From a bacterium (GTDB lineage: Bacteria; Zhuqueibacterota; Zhuqueibacteria; Residuimicrobiales; Krinioviventaceae): 64,000 bases of DNA. A program made the position numbers and the translations under genes. The DNA is taken from NCBI GenBank assembly GCA_963693055.1, contig OY843751.1, positions 1,370,072 to 1,434,071 of the forward strand, read 5' to 3'. The notes below the pieces were generated by a model that saw nothing but the letters and a program-made list of their open reading frames with translations, searched no databases and was not told the DNA's origin. Of this stretch, positions 15,419 to 64,000 are shown in pieces (the first letter of the stretch is position 1; the number at the start of each line of letters is the position of its first letter).

Positions 15419-15936
15419 TTCCTTGTTGTTTTGATTCGCAAACTGTTTTTTTATATGGAGATTTGAGAAAAGTAATATTGAATATAGAAAACTAGATTGT
15501 AAAAATCAAATCTAAATCATTAATTATTTTATAAATATGTTTTTTTTGATTTTGTCTCCAAATCGCATTTGGATCGGAGAGTTGTTGGTTTTTTCAAGAT
15601 TATGACCTTTTTCAATACTCACTTTGAGGCTAGGTTCCGATTATTAGAACCTGCAAATGAGATACTGTCTGCGAACGGTCTGTTTATGTTATGCTGAGAT
15701 TTCGTAAACATGAATTTATTAAAACTTTCAACTGGACAAAATATTAAAGGTTGTCCGAAATTATTTGATACGTATCTGGATAAATGTCTCAATTTCTCAT
15801 TTATCCATTTGCAGAATAGTTTCAATTCAGGTTATAAATAGTGTCTTTCGGGAATGTAGCCCTTGCTTTCAAATTCCAAAGTTTGTAATTTAAAAATTAT
15901 AGATTTTAATTATTTTTTTGTAAAGGAGGGTTATAA

Positions 15937-17982: not shown

Positions 17983-18027
17983 GTTGTAAATAATTGATTC
18001 ACTGCCGGGGGCGTTAGTTAATAAAAT

Positions 18028-18056
18028 TTGCCAGGCACATTTCTAGTGCCTGGCAA
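18028..18056. terminator. Bidirectional rho-independent terminator between convergent genes
   Basis: Perfect 11-bp inverted repeat TTGCCAGGCAC-atttcta-GTGCCTGGCAA between the 15937..17982(+) stop and the 18075..20000(-) stop, with AT-rich flanks. Confidence 0.6.
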
Positions 18057-18074
18057 TTGTAATTCAAACGTCTG

Positions 18075-20000: not shown

Positions 20001-20146
20001 ACAACATCTCCCTTTCGTTCAAAAGGTTGTCGGTTTGTTATCTATAGCAATATCAAACGTCGAAATTGCTGGAGATGTTTGGGATTATATTCATAAATTA
20101 ATAATAATCCCCCATAAAGGCAACAATGTTTTTAGGGTTGTAGATG

Positions 20147-20770
20147 GGGGAATTTCGACGGATAGAAAAAATTCCCAGACACCGATGAGGTGCCTGGGAA
20201 TAGTAATGTTCTATATGTGAAATAGGGATGGTTTTTATGGAACCTGCGAATTTTTACCACTATTGGGTTTAACCACCAAATAGTCTGTAGCGTTAACACT
20301 GCCATTCATGTTACAGTCAGAGGGATTATAACTCGCTGATCCGCTTTGGCCTTTGACAGTGAGATAGTCGGTCGCGTTTATAATACCGCTGTTATTCGCG
20401 TCTCCACTAAACATACCGTAAATGCCGGTTTCTAACTGTGCAGCGCTGCCGCCGTAATATTTGTCATAGGGTGTTGATTCATCCACGGTAAAATTATAGG
20501 TTGTCAGTGTACCGCTTAAACTCTGTGCTGTGGCGCTCATGATTGCCAAATGATTGCGGTGACGAATGACAATGTAATAGTCGCCCGGTGCCAGACCTGT
20601 GAGGGTGAGGTTGGTTACGGTACCATCGTCCTCAGCCAGATAGCCGTCGCTGCGCAGGATATAAGAGCGGCTGTACACAGCTTCACCATCTACAGTTGAG
20701 CGTAATTCCATACAAACCCAGTCGGTAATGCCTTCGGGGATACTGCCGGCATTACGATTGTCAGAATAGA
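20147..20770. repeat. Near-identical ~0.6-kb duplicated block (copy A) covering the 3' coding end of 20235..22340 plus its terminator
   Basis: 20147-~20770 is essentially identical to 23627-~24250. The encoded C-terminal ~170 aa are nearly identical (NRNAGSIPEGITDWVCMELRSTVDGEAVYSRSY...NSGKNSQVP), as are the 88 bp downstream of the stop. Confidence 0.8.
20161..20200 (-). terminator. Rho-independent terminator of 20235..22340 (inside the duplicated block)
   Basis: Minus-strand RNA forms UUCCCAGGCACC-ucauc-GGUGUCUGGGAA (12 bp, one G.U) followed by UUUUUUCUAUC. Confidence 0.55.
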
Positions 20771-22340: not shown

Positions 22341-22393
22341 GTTAACCCCTATTATAGTTGTTAATTAATAACATCTTTGTTTATGATCATTGG

Positions 22394-23332
22394 TTAATCT
22401 TTGACCAGGCGGATAGAAAATCCGTAAGTAAAACTTTGATTTGAGCGTGTAATCTCTGTATCGCCGTTGTATAATCCTCGCGTCCATGCGGCCTTTTGGG
22501 GATTCCCAGACAAAACATATTGAGTGGATGACCAAAAATCAGTTGATGATCCCAATAGGGAGCTAATTTTATCGAATCGATAACCACCTGGAAGAGCGGT
22601 AAAACGGCTTTTGTTGGTAGCCCCGGTGTTTGGGCTGTCCCAATGGGTTGTTCCTGTTTCTTTAAGTTTCCCTCCGGCCATTGTACCCCCAAGTGTATTT
22701 TGTAATGTGTTCCATTCGTCATCCGTAGGAACATGCCAGCCGTTTGGAGCTATGCTTCTGCTATCATTTACTGCATACCAATTATATAAATAACCGTATG
22801 TTTCAATAAACGTTACAGCCGATGAATAGCCATAACGTGCACCAGTACTTATGTTCTTCCAAGATGTATTATAGTCAACTTTAGGTATTTCGTCACCATT
22901 TCTGTACTGTGTTTCTTTTAAATTCTCAGCCATCCACCACTGGTCGCCAATCTTGACGGTTTTGTACACCGTGCCGTCGTTGCCGGTCATGGTGCTGAAA
23001 AAATAGTAGAGTACACACACTTTGAACTGGCTGCCACTGGTATTGGGATTGTCCGCGTAAAAGTCCCACACAATGTGCTTGTCTGTGCCCGCTGTTATGT
23101 CCACACCAAGGTCGCCGGAAAGGCTGACGCATTTCAGGTCCCATGTTGCGCCGTTGTCGTTAGAGGCTTCGACTGCAATTTCAGTATTATACCCTTGGGG
23201 ATTGCTGAAATCGTAATAGATGTCGACCATGAAATTGCCGTCTGTGCGTTGTGCCACCCGTATGTTGGAAACCTGGGCGAACAGGCAGCCGGTCAGTGAA
23301 ATCAACAATAAAGCAGTGAATAGTAATCTCAT
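22394..23332 (-). CDS. FISUMP-domain (Fibrobacter succinogenes major paralogous domain, TIGR02145-like) secreted protein/lipoprotein, tandem paralog 1
   Basis: TMTGNDGTVYKTVKIGDQWWMAENL...YGYLYNWYAV...APNGWHVPTDDEWNTLQNTLGG...KLKETG...FTALPGGYR...FWSST...AWTRGLYNG...GFSIRLVKD. Lipobox-like LTGC after the signal peptide. Start placed at the second ATG (GAGGAG RBS). Confidence 0.8.
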   Translation of the reverse strand: MRLLFTALLLISLTGCLFAQVSNIRVAQRTDGNFMVDIYYDFSNPQGYNTEIAVEASNDNGATWDLKCVSLSGDLGVDITAGTDKHIVWDFYADNPNTSGSQFKVCVLYYFFSTMTGNDGTVYKTVKIGDQWWMAENLKETQYRNGDEIPKVDYNTSWKNISTGARYGYSSAVTFIETYGYLYNWYAVNDSRSIAPNGWHVPTDDEWNTLQNTLGGTMAGGKLKETGTTHWDSPNTGATNKSRFTALPGGYRFDKISSLLGSSTDFWSSTQYVLSGNPQKAAWTRGLYNGDTEITRSNQSFTYGFSIRLVKD

Positions 23333-23543
23333 TGTTCTCCTCATTCGTTATGTAAAAACCAATGCTTAACTCTAAATACCCGGGCATTGCTATTCCATAC
23401 TTTTTGTAGGAAATGCTTGTTACGGTATCTGCATCTGCATATTTTTATTCCCTCAAAAAGAACAGGCACTGCTGTAGTATTCAGAACCTAATAAAATGTC
23501 AATGTTGGAAAAGTGTTAGATTGAATTTAAGCAATTTCGCAAT

Positions 23544-23594
23544 ACAGTACCAAGCACACATGTCGCAAAAACCAGTACATATGTCGCATTTGAA
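23544..23594 (-). promoter_or_regulatory. Candidate operator: two direct copies of ACA(C/T)ATGTCGCA spaced 20 bp, upstream of FISUMP gene 22394..23332
   Basis: ACAGTACCAAGCACACATGTCGCAAAAACCAGTACATATGTCGCATTTG; the same 50-bp element recurs at 30054..30103 upstream of another FISUMP paralog. The core ACATATGT is palindromic. Confidence 0.4.
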
Positions 23595-23626
23595 TCGATT
23601 TTTAATGCTTTGGGGGTTGGAGCTGG

Positions 23627-24250
23627 TGGGAATTTCGACGGATAGAAAAAATTCCCAGACACCGATGAGGTGCCTGGGAATAGTAATGTTCTATATGTGA
23701 AATAGGGATGGTTTTTATGGAACCTGCGAATTTTTACCACTATTGGGTTTAACCACCAAATAGTCTGTAGCGTTAACACTGCCATTCATGTTACAGTCAG
23801 AGGGATTATAACTCGCTGATCCGCTTTGGCCTTTGACAGTGAGATAGTCGGTCGCGTTTATAATACCGCTGTTATTCGCGTCTCCACTAAACATACCGTA
23901 AATGCCGGTATCTAACTGTGCAGCGCTGCCGCCGTAATATTTGTCATAGGGTGTTGATTCATCCACGGTAAAATTATAGGTTGTCAGTGTACCGCTTAAA
24001 CTCTGCGCTGTGGCGCTCATGATTGCTAAATGGTTGCGGTGACGAATGACAATGTAATAGTCGCCCGGGGCCAAGCCAGTGAGGGTGAGGTTGGTTACTG
24101 AACCATCGTCCTCAGCCAGATAGCCGTCGCTGCGCAGGAGATAAGAGCGGCTGTACACAGCTTCACCATCTACAGTTGAGCGTAATTCCATACAAACCCA
24201 GTCGGTAATGCCTTCGGGGATACTGCCGGCATTACGATTGTCGGCATGGG
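23627..24250. repeat. Near-identical ~0.6-kb duplicated block (copy B) covering the 3' coding end of 23715..25802 plus its terminator
   Basis: See copy A (20147..20770); identity extends through the terminator hairpin and 3' flank. Confidence 0.8.
23641..23680 (-). terminator. Rho-independent terminator of 23715..25802 (duplicate of 20161..20200)
   Basis: Sequence identical to the hairpin and U-run at 20161..20200. Confidence 0.55.
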
Positions 24251-25802
24251 GAGAAGTTGCTGGTATTTTACCGGCCAAATTCATACGCATGGCGTGCGCG
24301 GCGGTATTATATGTGCCTTGCAGAAAGACTTTGACGGCAAGTCGGGGGTCGCCTTCATCGGTGGTAAATGATCTTGTTGTTCCATAAAAGGTGCCGTAAC
24401 AATTGGACCCAAACGTACGGTAATAATAGGTAGTATTGGGAGCAAGCCCGGTCACAATGTCTGAAAAACTTCCTGACGAACTGCCCATTGAGACCATGTT
24501 GTCTGTCATGACGGGCGGATTGGTGGTACTGTAAATGACACCGCGTCGCTGCACCGGTACGCCATTATGATTAGAAAAACGACCACCCAGTTCAGCGGAT
24601 GATTCGGTTATGTTTTCCGCCGCGTCCGTTGACATGGAAACATCAATACGATAAGTATCTCCTTTTTTAATACCAACAATGCCATCACCACCACCGACCA
24701 ACAGGTCAACGCGTTTATTACCGTCCAGATCGGTTTGAGCCAGTATTGATCTTTCGCCAACATCAATGTCATTCCAATCCGTGGTTGCACTGGAAAACGA
24801 TAATGATGCAATACCGCTTTGCTGATAAAGCTGGATTTTACCGTTTTCAGCACCTATAAAAAGCTCTAAATTATTTCCCGCATCGTAATAACAAAACATG
24901 GGTGAAGAGTCACCGCTGACATCAATAGAATTGAAATTATCACTAACCAAGGTAAAGGACAATGAATACTTGGCGTCCTGTTCGTAATGACGAATGGTGC
25001 CCTCCAAGGTGCCCACCAGCAGGTCAAAGTAGCCATCCAAATCCAGGTCAGTAAAAGTGGGTTTAGACCAAGAGCCCGCATCGATGCCGCTCAAAGCGCC
25101 AATATAGGTAAAGGATGCTGAACGCTCGCTGTCTTGTTCATAATGTTGCAGGGTGCCGTCGCCGCGGCCTATGAGCAGGTCAAGCAAGCCGTCGCCATCC
25201 AGATCAGCAACTGTGGGGGAACTACCAACACCGACATCAATATCGCTAAAATTTGACGTAATGAGGTTTAATGAAAACGAGTTGACAGCCGTTTGTTCAT
25301 AACGGGTCAGTGTACCGTCATGATTGCCCACCAGCATATCTAACAGACCGTCGGCGTCAATATCGGTCATGGTTGGGGCGGCGTAACTGCCCACGTTGAT
25401 GCTGGTCATATCTGATGTTTCAAATTGCAGTATATAACTATATTGGCCTGTGCCGGCGCGGTTGGTGGCACTGACCCGCCAGTGATAGGTGGTACTGTTG
25501 GCGGGCAGATCGGCAGCATACTCTGTTTCTGTTATGCCGGTATATGTTCCTATTATATTGTCAAATTCCCAATCAGTTGCGATTTCTAAGTTATAGGTTT
25601 GGACATGGTCCATGTTTTCCCAAAATAGATAGGCCCGGCAAGATAGCAGGTCTGTATTGGGGTATCTGGGACCGACCAACTCTGGCGAACCGGGAGGCAT
25701 GGAAGTCAGAGACACTGTAGAAGATTCGACGCTACCATTAGCTGTTAAACCGCATACGGCAAATAACAAAAGCATTAAAATTATCATGTTTAAATTTTTC
25801 AT
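23715..25802 (-). CDS. Secreted FN3 + FG-GAP/beta-propeller repeat protein with dockerin-like C-terminus (paralog of 20235..22340)
   Basis: Start moved to MKNLNMIILMLLLFAVCGLTANG at 25802 (AAAGGA RBS); the track ORF extends spuriously to 25964. FG-GAP motifs DIDADGLLDMLVGN, ADLDGDGLLDLLIG, TDLDLDGYFDLLVG; the C-terminal ~170 aa are identical to the paralog. Confidence 0.8.
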   Translation of the reverse strand: MKNLNMIILMLLLFAVCGLTANGSVESSTVSLTSMPPGSPELVGPRYPNTDLLSCRAYLFWENMDHVQTYNLEIATDWEFDNIIGTYTGITETEYAADLPANSTTYHWRVSATNRAGTGQYSYILQFETSDMTSINVGSYAAPTMTDIDADGLLDMLVGNHDGTLTRYEQTAVNSFSLNLITSNFSDIDVGVGSSPTVADLDGDGLLDLLIGRGDGTLQHYEQDSERSASFTYIGALSGIDAGSWSKPTFTDLDLDGYFDLLVGTLEGTIRHYEQDAKYSLSFTLVSDNFNSIDVSGDSSPMFCYYDAGNNLELFIGAENGKIQLYQQSGIASLSFSSATTDWNDIDVGERSILAQTDLDGNKRVDLLVGGGDGIVGIKKGDTYRIDVSMSTDAAENITESSAELGGRFSNHNGVPVQRRGVIYSTTNPPVMTDNMVSMGSSSGSFSDIVTGLAPNTTYYYRTFGSNCYGTFYGTTRSFTTDEGDPRLAVKVFLQGTYNTAAHAMRMNLAGKIPATSPHADNRNAGSIPEGITDWVCMELRSTVDGEAVYSRSYLLRSDGYLAEDDGSVTNLTLTGLAPGDYYIVIRHRNHLAIMSATAQSLSGTLTTYNFTVDESTPYDKYYGGSAAQLDTGIYGMFSGDANNSGIINATDYLTVKGQSGSASYNPSDCNMNGSVNATDYLVVKPNSGKNSQVP

Positions 25803-25855
25803 ACTATCCTTTCTACTTGATTTATACAGGTCTTCAGGAAACCCTTTTTGTAAAA

Positions 25856-26827
25856 TTAATCTTTGACCAACCGTACTGAAAATCCATACCCGGCAATTGC
25901 AGACCGTCTCTGGATACCGGATTCGTAATAAAAAAGCATGCGTATTGTATTTGTAGATGCCCAATATCCGGTTTCATAGCCCAAAGGGGGATAGGAATTC
26001 ATTATACCTCCATCCCAAGCACTTTTGCGAAAAGACCCTGGTGTGGCAGAAAAATGCCAGATGTCAGAAGAACCATATCCATCCATGTACCATCCTCTTG
26101 TAGTTTTTAATTGATTCCCTTGATCCGTGCCGCGATATACACCTCCCTTATTGGCTTCTTCTTCACTCATGCCCATAAACATTTCCAGTTCTATCCAGTC
26201 CTCATCCGTGGAAAGGTGCCACCCGGGAGGGGCAATGTTTCTGCTATCCGCACAAGCATACATATTATATACATAACCATAGCTTTCAGCATAACTTTCA
26301 TCATTGTCATATACACCTCGTGCTCCAATTTCATTCTCGTTACAATCTTGCCATCCCGCAATATCATCCGGGTAAACAATGTCAGAGCCGTCACGGTATT
26401 TTGTTTCTCTTAAATTTTCACGCATCCACCACTGGTTGCCAATTTTAATGGTCTTGTATATCCTGTCGTCATTGCCGGTCATGGTCCCATATAAAGTATA
26501 CAAAATTTGAATTTTGAGCTGGCTGCCGCTGGTATTGGGATGGTCGGCGTAATAGTCCCATACGATGTGTTTGTCTGTTCCGGGTGTAGTCACATATCCT
26601 TTATCACCCGAGAGGCTGGAACATTTTAAATTCCACGTAACGCCATTATCTTCTGAAGCTTTGATTCCGATATCTGCAGCTTCACATACCGGATCAACAA
26701 TGTCATACCATATGTCAACCATAAAAGTGCCATCGGTGCGTTGTTGCACGCGCAGGTTGGTGACCCCTTGCGCCAACAGGCAGCCAACGGTCAAGAGTAA
26801 TGTTGTTACTGTTGTTGAAAATTTCAT
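25856..26827 (-). CDS. FISUMP-domain secreted lipoprotein, tandem paralog 2
   Basis: MKFSTTVTTLLLTVGCLLAQ (lipobox), then an N-terminal Ig-like domain and a FISUMP domain (IYKTIKIGNQWWMRENL...YGYVYNMYA...APPGWHLSTDEDWIELE...GFSVRLVKD). Start at 26827 with a GAGGGA RBS. Confidence 0.8.
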   Translation of the reverse strand: MKFSTTVTTLLLTVGCLLAQGVTNLRVQQRTDGTFMVDIWYDIVDPVCEAADIGIKASEDNGVTWNLKCSSLSGDKGYVTTPGTDKHIVWDYYADHPNTSGSQLKIQILYTLYGTMTGNDDRIYKTIKIGNQWWMRENLRETKYRDGSDIVYPDDIAGWQDCNENEIGARGVYDNDESYAESYGYVYNMYACADSRNIAPPGWHLSTDEDWIELEMFMGMSEEEANKGGVYRGTDQGNQLKTTRGWYMDGYGSSDIWHFSATPGSFRKSAWDGGIMNSYPPLGYETGYWASTNTIRMLFYYESGIQRRSAIAGYGFSVRLVKD

Positions 26828-30121: not shown

Positions 30122-32926
30122 TTAAAAAGTGTATTGGGAAGGAGATTTGCCAAACCGTTTTTTAAAGCAGCGTCTGAAATAGTCAGGGCTGCCGAACCCG
30201 GTTTGGTAGGCAATTTCTGATATGGTGGCGGTTTTACTTTCTAACATTTGAATAGCATGTTTTAGCCGGATTGAATGGATAAAATCAACAACAGTTTGGT
30301 TGGTAAGCGCATGGATCTTGCGGTGCAATTGTGAGCGAGACAAGGCCATCTTACTGCTTAACCAGTCTACACTCAGATCGGGATTGTTTAAATGCATTTC
30401 AATCAAATCCGCCGCACGCTTTAAAAAAACCTCATCGGCAGGCATGACCGCAATATCTTTAAGGGGGGTTGTGATTTGTTTGTTAAATCGTTGGCGCAGT
30501 TTTCGGCGCTGATCGATAAGGTTTTTGATCCGTACTTTGAGCTCGTCCGGTTCAAAAGGTTTGGTAAGATAGTCGTCAGCACCCAAGGTAAGGCCTTCAA
30601 TTTTGCTGGCACTGTCTGAACGGGCGGTAAGTAACACAACAGGTATATGGCTGGTGCGTTCATCGGTTTTCAATTTTTCACAGAACTGGTACCCGTCCAT
30701 GTTGGGCATCATTACATCACTGATTACCAAGTCGGGAATGCAATTGATTGCCTGTAGCAAACCGTCTTTGCCATCGACTGCTTCCAGTATTTCATATTCA
30801 TCTTCAATAATCTCATGAATATAGGCGCGCAGCTCTGAATGGTCTTCGGTAATGAGAATGATGGGGGCATCTTTTTTCTTTGAATGTCGAACAGGAACAG
30901 GCTTGTCATCCTTGTCATGTATATCCACAGGTGGTTGTTTGGTACTCTTGAAATTCAAAGAGGGTACTGGTGCAAAATCTTGTTCTGAAAAATGATCTTT
31001 TCCCAAAGGCAGATGTACAGTAAATGTGCTGCCCTTGTCTATTTCACTGGATACTGAAATTTTACCACGATGCAGAAGCACAAGTTCGCGAGCCAGTGCC
31101 AGCCCAATTCCGCTGCCTTGCTGGTTTTGTGGGTATCCGTTTTCAACCTGGTAAAACCGATCGAAAATATGTTCAAGGTGCTCATCTGGAATCCCTGGAC
31201 CGGTGTCTGATATGCTGATTTCCAGGGAATCGTTTTGAGAAACCGAAACTTTGATCTCTCCACCGGTGGGTGTGAATTTAACAGCATTTGATAAAAGATT
31301 GCCTAGTACTTTGTCGATTTTATCCCGATCAATCCAGACATAGGCAGCATTTAAACCGGTTTCATATATCAAACTGATTTGATGATGAACTACATGAGAT
31401 TCAAATGTCTGACATACACCTTTAATTAGTGGCCAAATATCTGTTTTTTTAACTTTTAATTCCATACGTCCTGATTCAATGCGGGAAAGGTCAAGCAGCT
31501 CATTCACCAGGTTTAAAAGTCGGCGACCATTCTTTAACTGTAAACGTGACCTCTTTCGTATGTTTTTATCTTGTGATTCATTCAGAATCTGTTGTGCTGT
31601 ACCCAGAATCAGGGTGAGGGGGGTACGGAATTCATGGGAAATATTGGCAAAAAATCGGGATTTCATTTTATCAATTTCTTTAAACTTTTCCGATTCGATG
31701 ACTTTTTTCTGAGCAATCTCTTTTTGGCGATTGTTTTCAATATACCTGTCAATGATGATCAATGTAAGACAGATAACAAAACCCAGGGTGCCGAAATGAA
31801 TCAGTCTGATATTTGATGATATATTGATCACATAATGCAGAAAAAGTTCAAGACCACCAAATAAATAAAAAATAATCAATCCTATAAAAAGTAACTTGAT
31901 TTCGCGCTTACCTTTGGTTGAACTCTTGATCACCAGAATAAAATTGGTTGTGGCGCTTGTGGAAGTAATTATAAAAAATAATTGATAAAACAGATCCGTA
32001 AAACGGTTCTTGATAATAATCATTGACAATATTGATAGTAATAGAAAAAACAGGTGGCCCTTCCAAAAACGTCTGACGACAGGTTTGAATTTTTTAGTGA
32101 TAATCTGTTCCGTGAGATACAAGCCGCCAATGGGTGAAGACATTAATGAGAAAAAATCCAGTAAAAAAAAGAGTCGCGGAGCATAGACCATTGTTTGAAG
32201 AAAGTAAGAATTGCTTCCTGTAAAGATACCAATTGAAATTAAAAATGTAGCAATTCCAATCAATAGATTGTTTCTCTGCACAAATAAATAAATAAATAAT
32301 AGTACAAAGCCAAGAATAATAAAAAGCGGGGCAAAGATGATTTCATCTATATCTTTGATAAATAGTTTTTTTAAAATAATGTCTGCCGGGGCAAGCCAGA
32401 TGGGTTGATTTAAACCTATTGTAGATTTATCGGACCAGATTCGAAAACAAAGAATACCTTTGGAATAATCATCGGGAAGACGTACAAGCATCATATGCCA
32501 GCCAACAAACAAATCTTTGTTTGTTGTGAAATCACCAAATTGATAGATTTGTTGGTCATTTAGGTAAACCTGAACAATTTGCCTTACACTGGGGAAAAAT
32601 AACGCAGGGTCTGAGTCTTTAGTATCCGGAAGCTGTGTTCGTATCCACAAACTATTATATCCCGTATTGGGGATGTCGTCAAAGTTTTCTACGGATATCC
32701 ATTTGTTTGAATCAATACCGTCATCCAACCAGATTAAATGTCCGTTTGCATCTTTAGGAGAATCCCCAATACGATACTGCCAACCGTTCTCAATATTATA
32801 TATCTCGTTTGATGTATTGGTATTATAGTTAATGATATTCGTTTCTTTGCCGAAACAAAGCGTTGAATATAATATAATTACAAACAAAATATATGTTAAG
32901 ACCAATGGTCGATTAGTCAGAATCAC
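30122..32926 (-). CDS. Hybrid two-component system sensor histidine kinase/response regulator with 7TMR-DISM sensor and C-terminal AraC-type HTH
   Basis: 934 aa. It has an N-terminal extracytoplasmic 7TMR-DISMED2-like domain plus a 7-TM region, HisKA (FFANISHEFRTPLTLILG), HATPase_c (GSGIGLALAREL), a receiver (DLVISDVMMPNMDGYQFCEKLK) and an AraC HTH (QTGFGSPDYFRRCFKKRFGKSPSQY). Confidence 0.85.
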   Translation of the reverse strand: MILTNRPLVLTYILFVIILYSTLCFGKETNIINYNTNTSNEIYNIENGWQYRIGDSPKDANGHLIWLDDGIDSNKWISVENFDDIPNTGYNSLWIRTQLPDTKDSDPALFFPSVRQIVQVYLNDQQIYQFGDFTTNKDLFVGWHMMLVRLPDDYSKGILCFRIWSDKSTIGLNQPIWLAPADIILKKLFIKDIDEIIFAPLFIILGFVLLFIYLFVQRNNLLIGIATFLISIGIFTGSNSYFLQTMVYAPRLFFLLDFFSLMSSPIGGLYLTEQIITKKFKPVVRRFWKGHLFFLLLSILSMIIIKNRFTDLFYQLFFIITSTSATTNFILVIKSSTKGKREIKLLFIGLIIFYLFGGLELFLHYVINISSNIRLIHFGTLGFVICLTLIIIDRYIENNRQKEIAQKKVIESEKFKEIDKMKSRFFANISHEFRTPLTLILGTAQQILNESQDKNIRKRSRLQLKNGRRLLNLVNELLDLSRIESGRMELKVKKTDIWPLIKGVCQTFESHVVHHQISLIYETGLNAAYVWIDRDKIDKVLGNLLSNAVKFTPTGGEIKVSVSQNDSLEISISDTGPGIPDEHLEHIFDRFYQVENGYPQNQQGSGIGLALARELVLLHRGKISVSSEIDKGSTFTVHLPLGKDHFSEQDFAPVPSLNFKSTKQPPVDIHDKDDKPVPVRHSKKKDAPIILITEDHSELRAYIHEIIEDEYEILEAVDGKDGLLQAINCIPDLVISDVMMPNMDGYQFCEKLKTDERTSHIPVVLLTARSDSASKIEGLTLGADDYLTKPFEPDELKVRIKNLIDQRRKLRQRFNKQITTPLKDIAVMPADEVFLKRAADLIEMHLNNPDLSVDWLSSKMALSRSQLHRKIHALTNQTVVDFIHSIRLKHAIQMLESKTATISEIAYQTGFGSPDYFRRCFKKRFGKSPSQYTF

Positions 32927-56601: not shown

Positions 56602-57495
56602 ATGATTAAAGAAATAATTAGCTTTGTGCAGCGGAACAGTGTGCTTCCACCGGCATTTCAAACCATGTTGATAAGTGCATTAAATCTCGTTAAAGAAGAG
56701 GATGAAAGGCAAGAGCTTTGTGAACTGGCTTGTGCTGTCTCTAACAGATCCTGGCAGGATTGGATAGCCGATCGAAAGCCGGAAGATAATCGCAAAGAGC
56801 ATGAGTGGATCGTGTTTTTGAATTTGATGCGTATTGCCCAATGTGAAAAATTATCACTGTCTGAAAAACGGATTGCAACCGCATTCGCATTTACACATGA
56901 TTCCTATTTTATCAAGCGGATCATGGAAGCCACCATTGAAGAAATAAAAGAGGATGCAAAGCGATTACTCGAAATAAATCCTGAGCAATCCCTACAATTA
57001 ATGGACAAGGCGGAAAAGCTGGAAAAAGATAAAGCAGATCAACGCAACCAGCATATGAACAAAGGTGCTGAAAACGCCAGGATACTGCTTGATGACTTGA
57101 CAGGATTTGAAACTGACCGAAAATTAATGGCACTTGAGGAAATTGATCGCTGTTGTGAAATTATTAGGAATCATGACAAGTGGAAAACCAGAGTGCCGTA
57201 TCCGCTCGGGAGTGACAAACTAGCAGTCGTCTGTGTTGAAGCAGATGCCCTTTGGCCCATGCACCCATTAGGTGTATTGGCAGATATTGAACGTCCTGAT
57301 GAAAATGGTAACACTCTGGATCCTGATGATCCGAATAGCTGGCGACAAAAGGTTGATGAAAGTCTGGGAACGCTTTTACGTTATCAACAAAACTGGTATG
57401 GATTAGGGGAATCTTTTAAAGACGCTGATTCCATATTCCGTACCCCTGAAGGTTTCCGGATATTTAATCAGTGGCGTGAGTTTTGGGGGATTTAA
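56602..57495 (+). CDS. Hypothetical protein (possible degenerate HD-type domain)
   Basis: 297 aa, no signal peptide; contains FAFTHDSYF and a coiled-coil middle segment; no confident family assignment. Confidence 0.35.
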   Translation: MIKEIISFVQRNSVLPPAFQTMLISALNLVKEEDERQELCELACAVSNRSWQDWIADRKPEDNRKEHEWIVFLNLMRIAQCEKLSLSEKRIATAFAFTHDSYFIKRIMEATIEEIKEDAKRLLEINPEQSLQLMDKAEKLEKDKADQRNQHMNKGAENARILLDDLTGFETDRKLMALEEIDRCCEIIRNHDKWKTRVPYPLGSDKLAVVCVEADALWPMHPLGVLADIERPDENGNTLDPDDPNSWRQKVDESLGTLLRYQQNWYGLGESFKDADSIFRTPEGFRIFNQWREFWGI

Positions 57496-57653
57496 GAAAA
57501 GTTATTATTTAGATACTGCCCACCTTGAAAATATTAATTTACTTTTTCTTATTTTATTCTTTTTTGAAAAAACTTTTTAAAAATTCATGTTTTTATTTAT
57601 CATTTAACAAAAATTGTTTTTTCTGTTTATGGTTTTTTTTGTAAATATTTTTC

Positions 57654-57682
57654 TTGATTCTTAATAAATTCTGCTTTATACT
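57654..57682 (+). promoter_or_regulatory. Candidate sigma70-type promoter for the HK/sigma54-activator operon
   Basis: TTGATT-N17-TATACT about 67 nt upstream of the 57749 start, in an AT-rich 250-bp intergenic region. Confidence 0.35.
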
Positions 57683-57748
57683 ATAAGTCGATAGGGAAGT
57701 TTTGGGTATCTTTTAGTTAATCTAGAAGTAAAATTAAAGTGGGACACC

Positions 57749-58861
57749 TTGGGGCTAGATTTCAAAAATATAGACTTGGTGAATGATCACGTTAGAGACG
57801 TACAGGCACTTTTTGCTCTAAACCGGGTAACGGATTCTATACAAATTATGGATGAATTGGGAAAAAGTGTCTTCCACAATGATTCGTTTATCAATTTGTT
57901 TGGCTATACAGTTGACCAGTTGAATGAAGCGGGTGGTTTGTATGCTATTCTTAAAGATCCTCAAATTGCAAATATTATTGTAAACGAGTTGGAAGTTAAG
58001 CCCGGTTGGATGGGTAAAGTTCAAATTTATACATTAGCGGGCAACCTTGTTTCAGTTGTATTGAGGATTAACAAGGTTAAAACAGAAAATAATGAAAACC
58101 AGGGATACGTTTGTTTTTTTTCAAACAATCTGTATCAGTATAATGTATATGCTGAAAAAGGCAAATATTACAGACACTTTGAAGAAGCAGAAAAGCTCGC
58201 CAGATTGGGGTATTTCTCATCAGTTATTTCTCATGAATTAAACAATCCTTTAAACATTATTAATACAAAGATTTATTTTTTGCAAAGAGAGCTGGAATCG
58301 ATTTCTAAAGAATCTGAAGTGTGGGAACATTTAACAAAGATCAAACAGCAACTCAAACGGTTGAAAAATCTAGCAAGCAGTGTTTTGCAATATGCCAGAC
58401 ATGATGTAAAAAAAGATTATCTTGTTAATGTTAACCAGGTGATACAGCGTACTTTGGAATTCTTTGATGATCAGCTTACAGATGAAATAATTGTAATAAA
58501 TAGATTAGATAAAGAAGTATCGCTTGTTCCTGCAGATTCAACGGGGTTAGAGATTGTATTTAAAAATTTGATATCTAATGCAATTGAAGCGTTGGAAGAA
58601 TCCGGCACAATCACAATATCCACCCGAAATGTAAATGAAAAATTTATTGAAATTACAATATCTGATTCCGGTAAAGGTATATCCGAAGATTTGCAGGAAA
58701 AGGTATTTGACCCCTTTTTCACCAGTAAAAGTAAAGAAGGGGGCTATGGATTGGGTCTAAGTATTTGTGAAAATATTATACATGAGCACAATGGAATGAT
58801 TAATCTAAGAAGCAGGATTGGCAGAGGAACAACGTTTGTCTTACTATTACCCCGTTTGTAA
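57749..58861 (+). CDS. Cytoplasmic PAS-domain sensor histidine kinase
   Basis: N-terminal PAS-like region; HisKA (FSSVISHELNNPLNII); HATPase_c (NLISNAIEA...ISDSGKGIS...GGYGLGLSICENIIHEHNGMINLRSRIGRGTTF). Confidence 0.8.
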   Translation: MGLDFKNIDLVNDHVRDVQALFALNRVTDSIQIMDELGKSVFHNDSFINLFGYTVDQLNEAGGLYAILKDPQIANIIVNELEVKPGWMGKVQIYTLAGNLVSVVLRINKVKTENNENQGYVCFFSNNLYQYNVYAEKGKYYRHFEEAEKLARLGYFSSVISHELNNPLNIINTKIYFLQRELESISKESEVWEHLTKIKQQLKRLKNLASSVLQYARHDVKKDYLVNVNQVIQRTLEFFDDQLTDEIIVINRLDKEVSLVPADSTGLEIVFKNLISNAIEALEESGTITISTRNVNEKFIEITISDSGKGISEDLQEKVFDPFFTSKSKEGGYGLGLSICENIIHEHNGMINLRSRIGRGTTFVLLLPRL

Positions 58862-58876
58862 TAAGGGATTTATTAT

Positions 58877-60253
58877 ATGTTCAAAGTACTGCTGGTTGAT
58901 GACGAAATAGAAATTCTAAGAGATTACTCTCGTTTGATCATGGAAATGGGTTATCAATGCATTATTGCCAGAAATGGTGAAGAAGCGATCGAGTTGTTGA
59001 AACAAGAACATCCGGATATAATTTTGACGGATCAGAAAATGCCCAAAAAGGGTGGCATGTCTGTATTGCAGGAAGCATATGCGCTAGACAAGTCCATACC
59101 AGTGATTCTGATTACAGGGTATGGCTCTGTAAAAAATGCCGTGGATGCCATGAAGTTTGGTGCGTTTGATTATCTGCAAAAGCCATTTGATCCTGAAAAA
59201 ATGCAGGAATTGCTGAAAAAGGCGGAAAAGTTTCGTAAAGAAAAATTAAATATTCCTATCGTTGAACTGGATGGGGATTACAGCAAGCCGCTTGAAGGGG
59301 TAATAGGGAAAAGCAAAGTTATTACCGATATTACAAAACGAGTATACAAAGTAGCGCCATCCATTTCTAATGTGTTAATCTATGGAGAATCTGGTACCGG
59401 CAAAGAACTTGTTGCCCGCAACATCCACTTGAACAGTAAACGTAAAGATCAACCCTTTATACCACTGGATTGCAGTGCGCTCCCGGCAAATCTGTTAGAA
59501 AGCGAAATGTTTGGCTATGAAAAAGGCGCGTTTACAGGGGCTGATAGGGAAAAACCCGGAGTTATTGAGCTTGCGCATAAAGGTACTTTGTTTCTGGATG
59601 AAATAACAGAACTGGATGCCAGCTTGCAATCAAAGTTGTTACGTTTTATTCAGGAACGGCATTTCCGTAAAGTGGGAGGCCAGAAATTAGTCAAAGTTGA
59701 TGTTCGTATTATTTCAGCAACCAATCGAAATCCTGAAGAGGCAGTTAAAGAGAAATTGTTACGTAGTGATCTGTATTATAGATTAAATGTAGTTCCTTTC
59801 TTTATTCCTCCTTTGAGAGATCGAAGTGAAGATGTTTCCATACTCGTACAGCATTTCATTGAAAAGTTTAATCCTTCATTCGCACGCGAGATCAAGGGAG
59901 TGAGTTCAGATGCCATGTTGTGTTTAAAGCGATTCAACTGGCCGGGTAATGTTAGGGAGCTTCAGAATGTGATTGAACAAGCCATGTCTTTGGCAGATAA
60001 AAATATAATCGATTTGTCAGATTTGCCACCCCATGTGCGGGAAAACCACAACAACTATGTAGATCAGGTCCATCATGGACAAACATTCAAAGATGCAAAA
60101 GAGAAAATATTAAAACAGTTTGGTAAAAGATATTTTCAAGACCTGCTTGTTCAGTGTGATGGCAATATCTCAAAAACCGCGAAAATAGCAGGTATCAGTA
60201 GAAGTTCATTTTATCGTATACTTGATGAATTTGATATAAAACTGCCCGATTAA
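58877..60253 (+). CDS. Sigma54-dependent NtrC-family response regulator (REC + AAA+ sigma54 activator + Fis-type HTH)
   Basis: Receiver (MFKVLLVDDE...DIILTDQKMP); Walker A GESGTGKELVARNIH; the GAFTGA motif (EKGAFTGADREKPG); C-terminal HTH (ISKTAKIAGISRSSFYRIL). Confidence 0.9.
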   Translation: MFKVLLVDDEIEILRDYSRLIMEMGYQCIIARNGEEAIELLKQEHPDIILTDQKMPKKGGMSVLQEAYALDKSIPVILITGYGSVKNAVDAMKFGAFDYLQKPFDPEKMQELLKKAEKFRKEKLNIPIVELDGDYSKPLEGVIGKSKVITDITKRVYKVAPSISNVLIYGESGTGKELVARNIHLNSKRKDQPFIPLDCSALPANLLESEMFGYEKGAFTGADREKPGVIELAHKGTLFLDEITELDASLQSKLLRFIQERHFRKVGGQKLVKVDVRIISATNRNPEEAVKEKLLRSDLYYRLNVVPFFIPPLRDRSEDVSILVQHFIEKFNPSFAREIKGVSSDAMLCLKRFNWPGNVRELQNVIEQAMSLADKNIIDLSDLPPHVRENHNNYVDQVHHGQTFKDAKEKILKQFGKRYFQDLLVQCDGNISKTAKIAGISRSSFYRILDEFDIKLPD

Positions 60254-60484
60254 TTGTATTTGTACTATTCTTGACACACCCTTCCTATTACTTGTTTTTA
60301 TTAGACATCCATTCATTTAGTCCTTTGTATGCTCTGTTTTTGAATCAATTTTCGCATTTTTCGTAAATTATATCGAAATAGTGGTTTTTTAACTGTTTAA
60401 TTATCAAAGTGTTATCTTGATTGCTACAGGTAATTGTGGCCCTTTTTTTGTTTATTGTGTCATAATTCATCGTGGGAAAATATC

Positions 60485-60886
60485 ATGTGTTCACTTGCGT
60501 TAATTTCTTCAACAGATATTCAGTTGATAAACGAGATCAATTCTCTGTTATTAACCAGGAATTTTTCTGTACTGGTTGAGAAATCCAGAGTGTCTTTACT
60601 ATACTTGATTCTAAAACATGATATTAATTTTATCCTCTTGGACATTGGTTATATGGATCCTGAAGCGATCAAAGTGCTTTACATAATTAAGCAGTTGCGT
60701 CCCAAATTGCCAGTTATTGTTTTAACCCCGGACAATTCGGTAGTTCACAATCAGGTATTAAAATCAATGGATGTGTTTTATGTTGGTTTTAAGCCATTGC
60801 ATTATCAAAATTTTTCAATGATTATAGATACCTTGCTATTACTTCGTGGTAAAAGTACCGAATATTTATTAGACTCGATTGAATGA
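60485..60886 (+). CDS. Stand-alone receiver (REC)-like single-domain response regulator
   Basis: Start at ATG 60485 preferred over the track's TTG at 60434. DINFILLDIGYMDPEAIKVLYIIKQLRPKLPVIVLTPDNS...VGFKP retains the phospho-acceptor Asp, the Thr and the Lys positions, but the N-terminal acidic pocket is atypical (STD). No output domain. Confidence 0.45.
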   Translation: MCSLALISSTDIQLINEINSLLLTRNFSVLVEKSRVSLLYLILKHDINFILLDIGYMDPEAIKVLYIIKQLRPKLPVIVLTPDNSVVHNQVLKSMDVFYVGFKPLHYQNFSMIIDTLLLLRGKSTEYLLDSIE

Positions 60887-61164
60887 GCTATATAATTGAC
60901 TTGTTTTGTACGTTTTGTAGTACACTATCGTAATTGTAATAAAATTAAATTCTTAGCAGTTGTTTTGCTTTGTAATGTCTTATTTTTAGTACAATTCAGG
61001 AAGAGTTCGAGGTTTTTTGCGAATTATTAGTTTTTTCGCTTCATAATTTACAAGTATTTAGCTCAAGAAATTGAAGCGATTAAAATCAAGTATGGCATAA
61101 TCATTGGATAAGAAGTGTATATAATTTCAAATAAGATTAAAATGCTTTTTGGGGCAATGCGGGC

Positions 61165-61770
61165 ATGGGACTAGTAGGTTTTGTGATTAACATTTACAAT
61201 GGCAAGCAAAAGCTTGATAGGGTATTGATTTGTATAATCATAATGTTAATGACAAATATTAATTTTGTTTTCTCTCAAGATCAAGATTCTACATCTGTGG
61301 ATTCTGTAAAGCAAAGCAAGACCCGGGATATTTTGCAGAAATTGTTGAATCAGGCAACTCAGGAATCTATTCAGGATGTAATGGAAAAGCAAAAAGCCAT
61401 TGCGAAAAAAGATAGTGTCAAAGACAGCTCAGATGAAGGTCTTGAAATTGATGGATTATTGATCAATGAAACCAAAACTAAAATTGGCCAGGACTTTTAC
61501 GAATTCTTTTTCAATTTTTGGCAGGCACCTGAGAATGCTAAAGATTTTACATTGTTTGTGTCTGAAAGACCAACAGGAAACAGCGGAAGCTGGATCTGGG
61601 TAAATGTGAATGAAACCACAGTATTTCAAAACCGATTAACCCCCAAAGCCGACTTGATTGAGGAAACTGCACAAAGCGCTGTATCTATTGTCACAAATTA
61701 TTTGATAAATCTGGATCAAAACCAAAGACAGCTTGCTGGTGATGAAATGGCTGGGACTGGAATTTTTTAA
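61165..61770 (+). CDS. csgE: Curli assembly/transport component CsgE homolog
   Basis: EIDGLLINETKTKIGQDFYEFFFNFWQ...FTLFVSERPTGNSGSWIWVNVNETTVFQNRL aligns with E. coli CsgE (GLLTDHTVSSIGHDFYRAF...[24 protein letters not shown]). The start is uncertain among 61165, 61183 and 61243. Confidence 0.75.
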   Translation: MGLVGFVINIYNGKQKLDRVLICIIIMLMTNINFVFSQDQDSTSVDSVKQSKTRDILQKLLNQATQESIQDVMEKQKAIAKKDSVKDSSDEGLEIDGLLINETKTKIGQDFYEFFFNFWQAPENAKDFTLFVSERPTGNSGSWIWVNVNETTVFQNRLTPKADLIEETAQSAVSIVTNYLINLDQNQRQLAGDEMAGTGIF

Positions 61771-61782
61771 GGAGATGGATGA

Positions 61783-62208
61783 ATGCCTCGGGTAGTTAAA
61801 TGTTTTATACTTTTAATTTTATTTGCAAGCAGTGCATTTGCAACTGAATTGGTTTTTACGTTTGTTAATCCTGCTTTTGGCGGTTACTATTATAATGCTA
61901 CATGGTTGTTGAATTCTGCACAACTTCAAGATGATACCGGTGAATCTTCAAGTTCTTATGCCAGCAGTTATTATTCTGGATCATCCCTGGAAGATTTTGA
62001 AGAAAGTATAAACCGTCAGATTCTGAGTCGTTTATCCAGCAAGCTTGTGACGCAAATATTTGGAGAAGAAGATCTGGAACCTGGTCACTATGAGATTGGT
62101 GATTTTCAGATTGATGTAACTCCATCAGACAATGGGATACGTGTTGAAATAAATGATCCGGTTAATGGCGGCGAAACAGTTATAGAATTACCCTATTATG
62201 GTGACTGA
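61783..62208 (+). CDS. csgF: Curli assembly/transport component CsgF homolog
   Basis: Signal peptide, then ELVFTFVNPAFGGYYYNATWLLNSAQLQ matching the CsgF N-terminus ([28 protein letters not shown]); ...SINRQILSRLSSKLV matches CsgF QSQILGGLLS. Confidence 0.8.
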   Translation: MPRVVKCFILLILFASSAFATELVFTFVNPAFGGYYYNATWLLNSAQLQDDTGESSSSYASSYYSGSSLEDFEESINRQILSRLSSKLVTQIFGEEDLEPGHYEIGDFQIDVTPSDNGIRVEINDPVNGGETVIELPYYGD

Positions 62209-63640
62209 GAGTAGTGTAAATATGAAAATGAGACCTGTATTCTATACAATTTTTATAATTATTTTGATTTTTATGGGGTGTGCTCCCTATTTACAGCAAA
62301 GTAATCCTGTTCACACCACCCCGGCTACATTGGGGTATACCACTGCAATACATAGCGATTTGCTTTCATTGCCTGAACCACGTGAAAAGATTGTTGTTGC
62401 GGTATACAAGTTTAGAGACCAGACCGGACAGTACAAAGCTTCGTCAAGTGGAATGACATGGTCCACAGCTGTTACCCAGGGTGCTACATCTATGCTGCTA
62501 AAAGCTATGGAAGAATCTGGTTGGTTTATTGTTGTGGAGCGGGAAGGCATTTCAAACCTGTTGAATGAAAGAAAGATCATTCGTTCTACCCGAGAGAATT
62601 ATACGGACGACCAGGGACAGCAATTACCCCCATTACCTCCATTGCTTTATGCCGGAGTTACAATAGAGGGTGGAATAATTTCGTACGAAACCAATACATT
62701 AACCGGTGGTTTTGGCGCACGATATTTCGGCATAGGGGGTAATAACGAGTTTCGCAGTGATCAGGTAAATATTTATTTACGTTCGGTTGCAACAAAATCC
62801 GGTCGGATTTTAAATCAGGTAAATACTACAAAGACAATATTATCTCAAGCTGTAGATTTTAGTGTATATAAATTTGTAAGAGAAAGCCGTTTGTTAGAGA
62901 TTGAGAGCGGTTATTCTACCAACGAACCTCCACAAATGTGTGTGCTGGAAGCCATAGAAAAAGCCGTACTGGCTCTTGTTTGTGAAGGTATTGTATCAAA
63001 GAGCTGGGAGCTGAAAAATCCTGCGGATATTAAATCCCCGGTAATACAGCGGTATCTTGAGGAAAAGCAAAACACAACAAAATATACGTTGCAGAATAGT
63101 ATGCTCAACAGCAGATATGCAAAACCTCAATATGGTTATGACAAGGGATTAGGGCTCACCTTGAATTTGGGAAGTCATTTATACCAGGGCGATTACGCGA
63201 ATTCTGAAATTCGTCCAATGGGTGACGCTTCCATTTTGTGGGGTTTGCATCCCAATGTTTTGTTGGAATTAAATGGCAGTATAGGGCGGATTGCAAATAA
63301 AGATAATTTTTATACTGATTTGGGTTATTTGAATTTACAAAGCCGTTTTACATTTTGGTCTAATTCAAGATTTCGGCCATTCGGAATTTTGGGAGCGGGA
63401 GCAATGAATTTTAGAGCACGGGATAAAGCGGGTGTGTACATTCCACGTAAGAAACGGTTTAAAGGCTGGGAGCCTGTAATGATTTCTGGTTTAGGCGTTG
63501 AATATTTTATTAATCCCAGTTTGAGTATGAATCTAAGCTTTATAAATCAATATACCTTTACAGATTACCTGGATGGGGTTATCCATGGAAGTTATGATGA
63601 CTATTTCTGGGGATTCAAGCTGGGGTTTAGTTATTATTAG
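62198..63640 (+). CDS. csgG: Curli secretion channel CsgG homolog with ~190-aa C-terminal beta-barrel-like extension
   Basis: Lipoprotein signal (FMGCAP). KIVVAVYKFRDQTGQYK...GWFIVVEREGISNLLNERKIIRS...GGFGARYFGIGGNNEFRSDQVNIYLRSV...TILSQAVDFSVYKF...ESGYSTNEPPQMCVLEAIEKAV aligns along the full E. coli CsgG. An extra C-terminal region (residues ~290-480) has alternating hydrophobic strands and ends ...FWGFKLGFSYY. Overlaps csgF by 11 nt. Confidence 0.9.
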   Translation: MVTESSVNMKMRPVFYTIFIIILIFMGCAPYLQQSNPVHTTPATLGYTTAIHSDLLSLPEPREKIVVAVYKFRDQTGQYKASSSGMTWSTAVTQGATSMLLKAMEESGWFIVVEREGISNLLNERKIIRSTRENYTDDQGQQLPPLPPLLYAGVTIEGGIISYETNTLTGGFGARYFGIGGNNEFRSDQVNIYLRSVATKSGRILNQVNTTKTILSQAVDFSVYKFVRESRLLEIESGYSTNEPPQMCVLEAIEKAVLALVCEGIVSKSWELKNPADIKSPVIQRYLEEKQNTTKYTLQNSMLNSRYAKPQYGYDKGLGLTLNLGSHLYQGDYANSEIRPMGDASILWGLHPNVLLELNGSIGRIANKDNFYTDLGYLNLQSRFTFWSNSRFRPFGILGAGAMNFRARDKAGVYIPRKKRFKGWEPVMISGLGVEYFINPSLSMNLSFINQYTFTDYLDGVIHGSYDDYFWGFKLGFSYY

Positions 63641-63882
63641 GATCAGTTGAATACTGAAAGCTATCTGATTGGGATCTGGTAAGGGCAGATAGAATAAGTG
63701 AACATCACGCAGATGTAAAGAACAAACGTATTTTGACAATTTAATTGCATCAACAGGCAATCATTAAATTATTACTCTCAAAGGATTCACTGTTGATACC
63801 TGTGGAAATGAACTGTTCATTTCCCAATGTAAACAATTGCTACATGAAAAAATGCAATGCAAAGCGTAGTTGAGGAGTGAGG

Positions 63883-64000
63883 ATGAGAATTTTCATGTCT
63901 GTTCTACTGGCACTGTTGTTATTTTCAAGTGTTGGTATTGGTGCAGAAAACAGTGTGACTGCTAATGTAAACGGTAATTTCAATCAATCAACAGTTACGC
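63883..64000 (+). CDS. Curlin-like (CsgA/CsgB-type) secreted amyloid subunit candidate, N-terminal fragment (runs off window)
   Basis: GAGGAGTGAGG RBS, MRIFMSVLLALLLFSSVGIGA signal peptide, then ENSVTANVNGNFNQSTVT resembling the N/Q/G-rich S-x5-Q-x-G-x-x-N repeat start of curlins. Only ~39 codons are visible. Confidence 0.35.
   Translation, partial: MRIFMSVLLALLLFSSVGIGAENSVTANVNGNFNQSTVT

Follow-up and report, generated by a model that had tools for sequence, protein, structure and literature searches.

The regulation of curli has been worked out mainly for Escherichia coli and Salmonella, where the regulator is CsgD. Curli clusters of Bacteroidetes lack csgC and csgD and hold up to six csgA/B homologues, and alternative regulation has been suspected for them (Dueholm et al. 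2012, PMC3521004); a 2025 review counts CsgA/B+CsgEFG as one of the five commonest compositions of curli gene clusters and describes curli operons as widespread in Bacteroidota (PMC12822426). The fapA-E amyloid operon of Pseudomonas fluorescens has a -24/-12 RpoN promoter and an adjacent gene for the enhancer-binding protein BrfA, with loss of matrix production in rpoN or BrfA mutants (PMC9207406). The locus described here occupies positions 57749-64000 of a stretch of 64,000 nucleotides of bacterial DNA from contig OY843751.1 (the window), and comprises genes for a PAS histidine kinase (HK), a sigma-54 enhancer-binding protein (EBP), a stand-alone receiver (REC), CsgE, CsgF, CsgG and the beginning of a curlin subunit. 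A first-pass annotation of this DNA held that the gene order does not match the proteobacterial csgDEFG layout, which is correct in that no CsgD heads csgEFG; the layout itself has been known since 2012 and is counted as known because csgD-less Bacteroidetes clusters have already been described (PMC3521004). What is new here is the regulatory variant, in which the curli locus is probably placed under the control of the adjacent kinase and EBP by way of two sigma-54-type promoters.

Genes of the window were called from its open reading frame (ORF) listing and scored with Pfam. All genes of the cluster were confirmed at the positions given by the first-pass annotation and lie on the + strand. 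The kinase (57749-58861, 370 aa) matched PAS_9, HisKA (37.1 bits) and HATPase_c (95.7 bits); it was taken to be cytoplasmic because it has no hydrophobic segment, no transmembrane segment being predicted and the highest Kyte-Doolittle average over 19 residues being 1.1. The EBP gene (58877-60253, 458 aa) lies 16 bp from the end of the HK gene. Its product is a complete NtrC-class activator, with a receiver domain (Response_reg, 92.7 bits), an AAA+ domain (Sigma54_activat, 228.6 bits) bearing the GAFTGA motif at nucleotide 59525, and a C-terminal helix-turn-helix (HTH; HTH_8, 23.2 bits); AAA_lid_14 is also present. The kinase and the NtrC-type sigma54 activator directly upstream of the amyloid genes are thus as the annotation had proposed. 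A diverged receiver of 133 aa follows (60485-60886), recognised from a weak Response_reg match and a family alignment, and after it come csgE (61165-61770), csgF (61783-62208) and csgG (62198-63640), whose products matched their Pfam families at 91.5, 132.6 and 206 bits and are as unambiguous as had been claimed.

Related loci compared with the window are labelled by L-numbers. The closest is L001 (with L005), on a 3.64-Mb contig of a metagenome-assembled genome, which is 88.5% identical to the window at the DNA level across 11.8 kb and has a CsgG 97% identical to that of the window. Between the two, the HK gene showed 94 synonymous and 13 non-synonymous codon differences. The nearest named relatives are KSB1 and Calditrichia.

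The order HK-EBP-REC-csgEFG-curlins is conserved in L001, in L085 (CsgG 75% identical) and in L088/L089 (52%), and L002 (67%) has HK-EBP-csgEFG. EBP orthologues of 56-68% identity (L002, L088) are linked to csg genes. The association takes other forms in more distant lineages: the EBP gene lies inside the csg cluster in Calditrichia (L086 and L007; csgG-EBP-csgE-csgF), the order is HK-EBP-CheW-like-csgEFG in Ignavibacteria (L008, L023, L039), and the EBP gene of L067 lies 1.1 kb before csgF-csgG. Four loci of Marinifilaceae have an HK-EBP pair approximately 7 kb upstream, followed by a pseudo-REC, a type IX secretion system (T9SS) cargo gene, PorP/SprF and csgEFG. Directly adjacent HK-EBP pairs were found in the lineage of the window and in Ignavibacteria (L008, L023, L039, L068). 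Linkage of the cassette to csg genes is, on these comparisons, recurrent and of several forms, neither universal nor exclusive to curli, and its recurrence argues for function.

Sigma-54 promoters carry a GG at -24 and a GC at -12, and the C of the -12 doublet is near-invariant. Two sigma-54-like -24/-12 elements were recognised in the locus. The first, P1 (TGGCCCTTTTTTTGTT, 60437-60452, + strand), lies 48 bp before the ATG of the receiver gene and is identical in L001; the same position reads TGGTCTCTTTTTTGTA in L085 and TGGTATGTTTTTTGCG in L088. The second, P2 (TGGCATAATCATTGGA, 61093-61108, + strand), lies 72 bp before the ATG of csgE within a conserved island. In an alignment of the spacers ahead of csgE from the window, L001, L085 and L002 (alignment A2), of which the mean column identity was 57%, TGGCATA-T--TTG at P2 was invariant. 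The pattern TGG[CT]A[CT]-N5-TTG gave exactly one coding-strand match behind the EBP gene in 12 of the 13 EBP-linked lineages, in each case 67-156 bp ahead of the gene that follows the EBP gene, where 0.15 matches were expected (a background rate of 2.4e-5 per position over 6169 bp). This pattern was defined after the data had been seen, and the excess was judged to be far beyond what such freedom explains. The thirteenth lineage, L068, has a canonical site (TGGCCTGATTCTTGCT). At csg loci without an EBP, the pattern occurred within 1 kb upstream of csgE in 4 of 63 against 1.5 expected. Orthologous cassettes carry canonical sites in the same place in L093 (TGGCACCATAATTGCT), L092 (TGGCACAATGTTAGCA) and L091 (TGGCACAAAATTAGCA), and L067 has a canonical site (TGGCATGATATTAGCA) 85 bp before csgF. 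A search of the whole window with TGGCAC-N5-TTGCW, allowing up to two mismatches, returned 26 matches against 36 expected, which is chance level. Two further candidates, 60954 (TAGCAG...) and 63734 (TGACAA...), were set aside because they have no -24 GG and are unconserved beyond the closest relative.

Each element is preceded by a pair of dyads, all read on the + strand. Dyad A1 (TTCGTAAATTATATCGAA, TTCG-N10-CGAA, 60360-60377), a candidate EBP site, lies 69.5 bp upstream of the -24 of P1 in both the window and L001; dyad B1 (TGTACTATTCTTGACACA, TGTAC-N8-RYACA, 60261-60278), a candidate upstream activator site for P1, has its centre 168.5 bp from the -24, a distance again the same in L001. Ahead of P2, dyad A2 (TTCGAGGTTTTTTGCGAA, 61006-61023), likewise TTCG-N10-CGAA and a candidate EBP site, lies 79.5 bp upstream of the -24 in the window, L001 and L085, and 81.5 bp upstream, with one mismatch, in L002. 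Dyad B2 (TGTACGTTTTGTAGTACA, 60907-60924), a perfect TGTAC-N8-GTACA palindrome, lies 178.5 bp upstream in the window and L001 and 176.5 bp upstream in L085. A degenerate copy of dyad B with its right half-site intact (TGTCTTATTTTTAGTACA, 60976-60993) forms a conserved block in alignment A2, its counterpart at L085 position 1512 being TGTCCTGTTTGTAGTACA. The two sets of distances (69.5/168.5 bp against 79.5/178.5 bp) describe the same architecture offset by one helical turn, and they hold among the relatives although the surrounding spacer has diverged. Only two exact matches to TTCG-N10-CGAA exist in the 64-kb window, one ahead of each promoter (60360 and 61006), and TGTAC-N8-RYACA has one other match in addition to those at 60261 and 60907. 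This arrangement of dyads and promoter elements is the layout expected for an enhancer-dependent promoter, with a predicted binding site for the EBP. In Marinifilaceae a different repeated motif, ATCCGAA-N3-TGGA, lies upstream of the element, which is consistent with a diverged DNA-binding specificity.

The 133-aa receiver scored 21.9 bits against Response_reg, under the Pfam cut-off of 30.2, while its counterpart in L088 scored 39.6 bits. Codon differences from L001 were 47 synonymous against 6 non-synonymous, which identifies it as a gene under purifying selection. The phospho-acceptor D53, T81 and K103-P104 have aligned counterparts in NtrC1 and in the receiver domain of the EBP itself, and these residues, together with the acidic D11, are kept throughout the receiver family. 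Where receivers usually have a DD pair this protein has S-T, and the next position is an Asp conserved in the family; a reading of the protein as a receiver without any acidic pocket was dropped, since the family alignment shows the conserved Asp at position 11. No HTH or other output domain was found in it by Pfam. Homologous stand-alone receivers of 134-139 aa come after orthologous kinase-EBP pairs in several settings, ahead of csgEFG in L088/L089, of an SLBB/Wzz exopolysaccharide (EPS) cluster in L092, L094 and L095, and of unrelated genes in L093; in L091 a 128-aa relative lies ahead of another EPS cluster. A metagenome scan with the receiver family returned four loci, too few to estimate the curli-linked and EPS-linked shares. 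The slot between EBP and csgE is empty in L002 and Calditrichia, holds a degenerate receiver in Marinifilaceae, and in Ignavibacteria is taken by a CheW-like protein. The latter are stand-alone proteins (L008 8075-8584, L023 7905-8435, L039 8025-8486; 32-44 bits) and an unusual partner for a kinase-EBP pair. Because its homologues follow orthologous kinase-EBP pairs in non-csg settings too, the receiver is, on this comparative evidence, the third gene of a conserved, portable HK-EBP-REC cassette and not a curli-specific replacement for CsgD. The first-pass annotation was right that a CsgD-type regulator with a LuxR HTH is absent, the protein in that position having a weak Response_reg match and no HTH; its casting of the receiver in the role of csgD did not stand.

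These features suggest the following circuit. The cytoplasmic PAS kinase would sense an intracellular signal and phosphorylate the receiver domain of the NtrC-type EBP. The EBP would then bind the TTCG-N10-CGAA and/or TGTAC-N8-RYACA dyads, approximately 70-180 bp upstream of the two tandem promoters, and by use of ATP would open P1 and P2 as promoters of the sigma-54 type. From P1 (60437) the small receiver gene would be transcribed, and from P2 (61093) csgEFG, probably with read-through into the curlin genes. The 133-aa receiver would itself be made by the circuit, and its most plausible role is feedback, for instance by competing for phosphoryl groups from the kinase. A different, possibly sigma54-dependent circuit had already been proposed for this locus; the recurrent adjacency of EBP and csg genes and the conserved element with its dyads make it the best-supported reading, though one reached by inference and built on promoters that are non-canonical.

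The csg products themselves are readily aligned with those of E. coli. CsgE (201 aa; Pfam cut-off 25) has its domain at residues 95-194, preceded by approximately 70 aa of charged, low-complexity sequence that separates it from the signal peptide, and matches the NMR structure of E. coli CsgE (2na4) with E = 3e-12. CsgF (141 aa) aligns over its full length with its E. coli counterpart (6l7a chain J, from residue 3; E = 2.4e-11), and the N-terminal motif FxFxNPxFGG...LLNSAQ is kept, FTFVNPAFGG...LLNSAQ aligning with FQFRNPNFGG...LLNSAQ of 6l7a. CsgG is a long-form lipoprotein of 480 aa (472 aa from the ATG at 62222; PF03783, cut-off 20.8), with an FMGC lipobox read from the translation; its model is 41-42% identical to E. 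coli CsgG by Foldseek (E = 6e-20). In the AlphaFold model a linker helix connects the CsgG domain to an OmpA-like beta-barrel of eight strands at the C-terminus (residues ~318-480, nucleotides 63149-63637, pLDDT ~90; Pfam OMP_b-brl E = 0.009), which Foldseek matched to the transmembrane domains of OmpA, NspA, Ail and OmpX. Long-form CsgG of 440-490 aa was dominant among the top matches from Calditrichia, Ignavibacteria and Bacteroidota, and the barrel is missing from short forms (L032, L059) whose N-terminal domain is 63-64% identical. No description of a CsgG-barrel fusion was found in the literature searched; the fusion, widespread in the FCB group, may interest those who study or engineer the CsgG pore. 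The CsgE of Ignavibacteria (L008 8612-9535; L039 8669-9535) has a LysM domain at its N-terminus (41.8 and 27.4 bits), which suggests anchoring of this periplasmic curli accessory protein to peptidoglycan.

The first curlin-repeat subunit is represented by its first 39 codons (63883-64000, + strand), comprising the signal peptide and first repeat, and is cut by the end of the window. Of these residues 38 of 39 are identical to the start of a 437-aa protein of L001 (11662-12975) that matches Curlin_rpt (PF07012) at 99.9 bits with E = 6.9e-29. The curlin identity of the gene rests on this orthologue, and the array beyond the first 39 codons is known from relatives; the claim that a curlin-like gene follows csgG therefore holds through L001 and is not demonstrable from the window alone. 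In L001 five more complete curlin genes (100-187 bits) and a seventh, cut, come after the first, giving at least seven paralogues of 362-813 aa, and arrays of similar length are present in L002, L085, L086 and L088. All genes within 10 kb downstream in L001 are co-directional, and none of those called there had a Pfam match to CsgC or CsgH. On the evidence of these genes the locus is a genuine FCB-type curli (type VIII secretion) cluster, predicted to form fibres.

A number of observations weigh against control of the curli genes by the cassette. The absent -12 C is the main reason for caution over the sigma-54 reading: P1 and P2 each have TGGC at -24, with TTG at -12 lacking the usual C (TTGT and TTGG), and the C is absent also from most curli-linked sites in the relatives. 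The spacer search for GG-N10-GC proposed with the first-pass annotation gave, in its strict form, no usable site in the window spacers, and the elements were recognised instead by comparison between loci. P1 overlaps a terminator-like hairpin with a T-run at 60423-60450, no ORF with an RpoN box was found within the 64-kb window, and all the sequences compared come from metagenome assemblies. In L001 none of the curlin genes was found to have a sigma-54-like site ahead of it, so that their co-transcription with csgEFG is assumed. Downstream of P2 there is a TATAAT box (61120-61125, + strand), invariant in alignment A2, which may be where the DNA melts close to a sigma-54 start, or else the -10 of a competing promoter of the sigma-70 type. 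With regard to linkage, a CsgG-based survey of 80 species-representative loci, in which an EBP gene was sought within 10 kb, found one at 12; approximately 85% of the sampled FCB csg loci are without one, and most csg loci of Flavobacterium, Hymenobacter, Cyclobacteriaceae and Saprospiraceae have no EBP nearby. The closest named EBP orthologue (70% identical, KSB1, L090) is followed by convergent unrelated genes and no csg, and orthologues of 53-59% identity head EPS clusters. Beginning 55 bp beyond the EBP stop, L003/L004 match L002 at 99.9% identity and keep csgEFG and P2; unrelated DNA replaces HK-EBP there, and no HK-EBP lies within 8 kb. It could be argued that a mobile cassette happened to insert nearby and controls no more than its own receiver gene (P1) or targets far away, csgEFG being transcribed from an ordinary housekeeping-sigma promoter through the TATAAT box. 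The invariance of that box in four lineages, the missing -12 C of P2, the surroundings of the L090 orthologue, the state of L003/L004, the EPS clusters headed by the same cassette and the many csg loci without an EBP all lend themselves to this explanation, which is nevertheless considered unlikely. A -35-like hexamer is missing at 16-18 nt from the TATAAT box, which the sigma-70 scan does not report; the distance of the box from the -12 TTG differs by lineage (~1-2, 10, 11 and 18 nt), whereas TGGCA and TTG keep a constant spacing. Ahead of P2 the arrangement of dyads A and B seen at P1 recurs at helically phased distances, the EBP gene is embedded within the csg cluster in Calditrichia, and it is specifically at EBP-linked loci that the motif is enriched (12 of 13 lineages). 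Sigma-54 promoters of non-canonical form are on record, with examples listed from E. coli (PMC12316311).

The receiver might also be thought a functional counterpart of CsgD that acts through protein-protein contacts, the EBP serving only to produce it. It sits in the slot ahead of csgE, retains the phospho-acceptor Asp and the Thr and Lys, and in L088, L092 and L093 is the first gene after the sigma-54 promoter. It has, however, neither an HTH nor any other output domain, is absent from L002 and the Calditrichia loci and replaced by a CheW-like protein in Ignavibacteria, and its family precedes EPS clusters and unrelated genes as well; moreover, P2 lies downstream of the receiver gene, so that csgEFG has an EBP-type promoter module of its own. 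This possibility is regarded as very improbable. Least credible of all, and close to being discounted, is that the locus does not encode curli, the channel being a member of the CsgG/HfaB family that exports another substrate and the repeat proteins non-amyloid adhesins. CsgG does belong to a larger family that includes non-curli paralogues (PMC3521004), that of the window has an extra barrel domain, and no fibres have been seen. Against this, the curli-specific CsgE and CsgF both exceed their Pfam cut-offs, the N-terminus of CsgF aligns with that of E. coli, CsgG retains 41-42% identity to the E. coli protein, and the downstream proteins of L001 reach 100-187 bits on Curlin_rpt. Control of the curli locus by the kinase and EBP through P1 and P2 consequently remains the probable explanation. 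A broader proposal, to be held tentatively and at somewhat less than even chances, is that the three-gene switch, with its receiver auto-induced, is a general matrix controller of the FCB group, placed ahead of curli operons in some lineages and EPS operons in others, that in the curli-linked lineages it acts through sigma-54 promoters without the -12 C, and that the CsgG protomers are barrel-fused. If this is true, the curli machine would also be structurally distinct, each CsgG protomer having its own 8-stranded OmpA-like barrel.

The csgG-curlin spacer (63641-63882, 242 bp) contains no sigma-54-like site conserved across lineages. It is 92% identical to that of L001, compared with 89-91% for the flanking coding DNA and 75-84% in the remaining spacers. 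A perfect 9-bp hairpin (GGAAATGAA-CTG-TTCATTTCC) is present; the fold of the spacer is no better than that of shuffled sequence (z = -1.0), no motif is held in common with L085, L002 or L088, and Rfam gave no match in 57400-64000. Downstream of the curlin array, L002 and L088 have an OmpA-family gene and a CarboxypepD_reg/Tricorn/PD40 gene.

Further observations were made on the surroundings of the cassette in the window and its relatives. G+C content is 0.31-0.36 over the kinase gene and regulatory spacers (57500-61500) and 0.40-0.46 in the flanking 50-57 kb. L002 and L090 have the same T9SS cargo genes (InhA-like MAM domain) upstream of the kinase-EBP pair. The replacement in L003/L004 (breakpoint near L002 8306) contains a 454-aa ORF without a Pfam match, a Polbeta nucleotidyltransferase gene and a SatD-like gene, and may have come about by recent rearrangement, by insertion or through mis-assembly; a prophage in this place is unsupported, the 454-aa ORF having no significant Pfam match. 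In Marinifilaceae (L019 2111-8800; also L011, L015 and L018) the T9SS cargo protein is 1591 aa in length with PKD and CHU_C domains, and a TGG(C/T)A-N6-TTGA element with three ATCCGAA-N3-TGGA repeats lies ahead of the intervening genes; the T9SS adhesin and curli may there be under one common switch. Elsewhere in the window a series of large secreted proteins is encoded on the - strand at 8496-25964, with FlgD_ig and T9SS Por_Secre_tail domains in four (8496-11114, 11386-13410, 13595-15418 and 18075-20000) and FG-GAP and dockerin domains in two (20235-22340 and 23715-25964). A 934-aa hybrid protein with 7TMR-DISM, HisKA, HATPase, receiver and AraC HTH domains is encoded at 30122-32926, also on the - strand; proteins built in this way, known as 'hybrid two-component systems', are typical of Bacteroidota. 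The T9SS sorting-domain proteins and the hybrid kinase-receiver-AraC protein are consistent with an organism of the FCB group.

In the literature searched, no regulator has been proposed for the csgD-less curli clusters of the FCB group and no paper was found that links curli to a sigma-54 promoter or an EBP; a 2025 survey of sigma-54 regulons makes no mention of curli, csg or amyloid. The present locus and its relatives provide a concrete circuit that can be tested, and a version of the module is carried by a cultured strain, Marinifilum flexuosum DSM 21950; a CsgG homologue was also seen in Marinifilum fragile. Promoter-prediction pipelines would miss sites with so relaxed a -12 element. If the proposed control is correct, curli would be a further functional amyloid under sigma-54 control after the Fap of Pseudomonas.

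Compared with the csgDEFG and csgBAC operons of E. coli and Salmonella, the locus has homologous CsgE, CsgF and CsgG and likewise secreted subunits built of curlin repeats. It differs in having no CsgD, the control predicted here being by sigma-54 and an EBP, and in that the called genes of L001 gave no Pfam match for CsgC/CsgH. Loci of the window type occupy one strand, csgEFG followed by the curlins, with no divergent csgBAC in the L001 stretch; in place of CsgA and CsgB there are at least seven large curlin paralogues (362-813 aa in L001), and CsgG is modelled with an added C-terminal 8-stranded barrel. The fap operon is the nearest functional precedent: like the locus, with its candidate -24/-12 promoters, it encodes a functional amyloid, has a -24/-12 promoter and lies next to the gene of an EBP. 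Its amyloid is distinct from curli and has its own gene set, brfA lies downstream on the opposite strand, the promoter figure marks GG and GC elements, and neither a kinase nor a stand-alone receiver is mentioned in the available portion of that report (PMC9207406). The pairing of a HisKA/HATPase kinase with a REC-AAA+(GAFTGA)-Fis-type HTH activator is that of NtrB-NtrC, as are dyad upstream sites approximately 100-200 bp from a -24/-12 promoter, for which P1 and P2 are the candidates here. Unlike NtrB-NtrC, the predicted target in the window is an amyloid secretion operon, the -12 is relaxed to TTG-N in the curli-linked lineages, and a single-domain receiver, proposed to be transcribed from the regulated promoter, is conserved as a third partner. 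The Bacteroidetes-type curli clusters have csgEFG and several csgA/B genes and no csgC or csgD, much as here; the surveys of these clusters (PMC3521004, PMC12822426) name no regulator, whereas to the present locus is attached a specific kinase-EBP-receiver cassette together with a promoter architecture.

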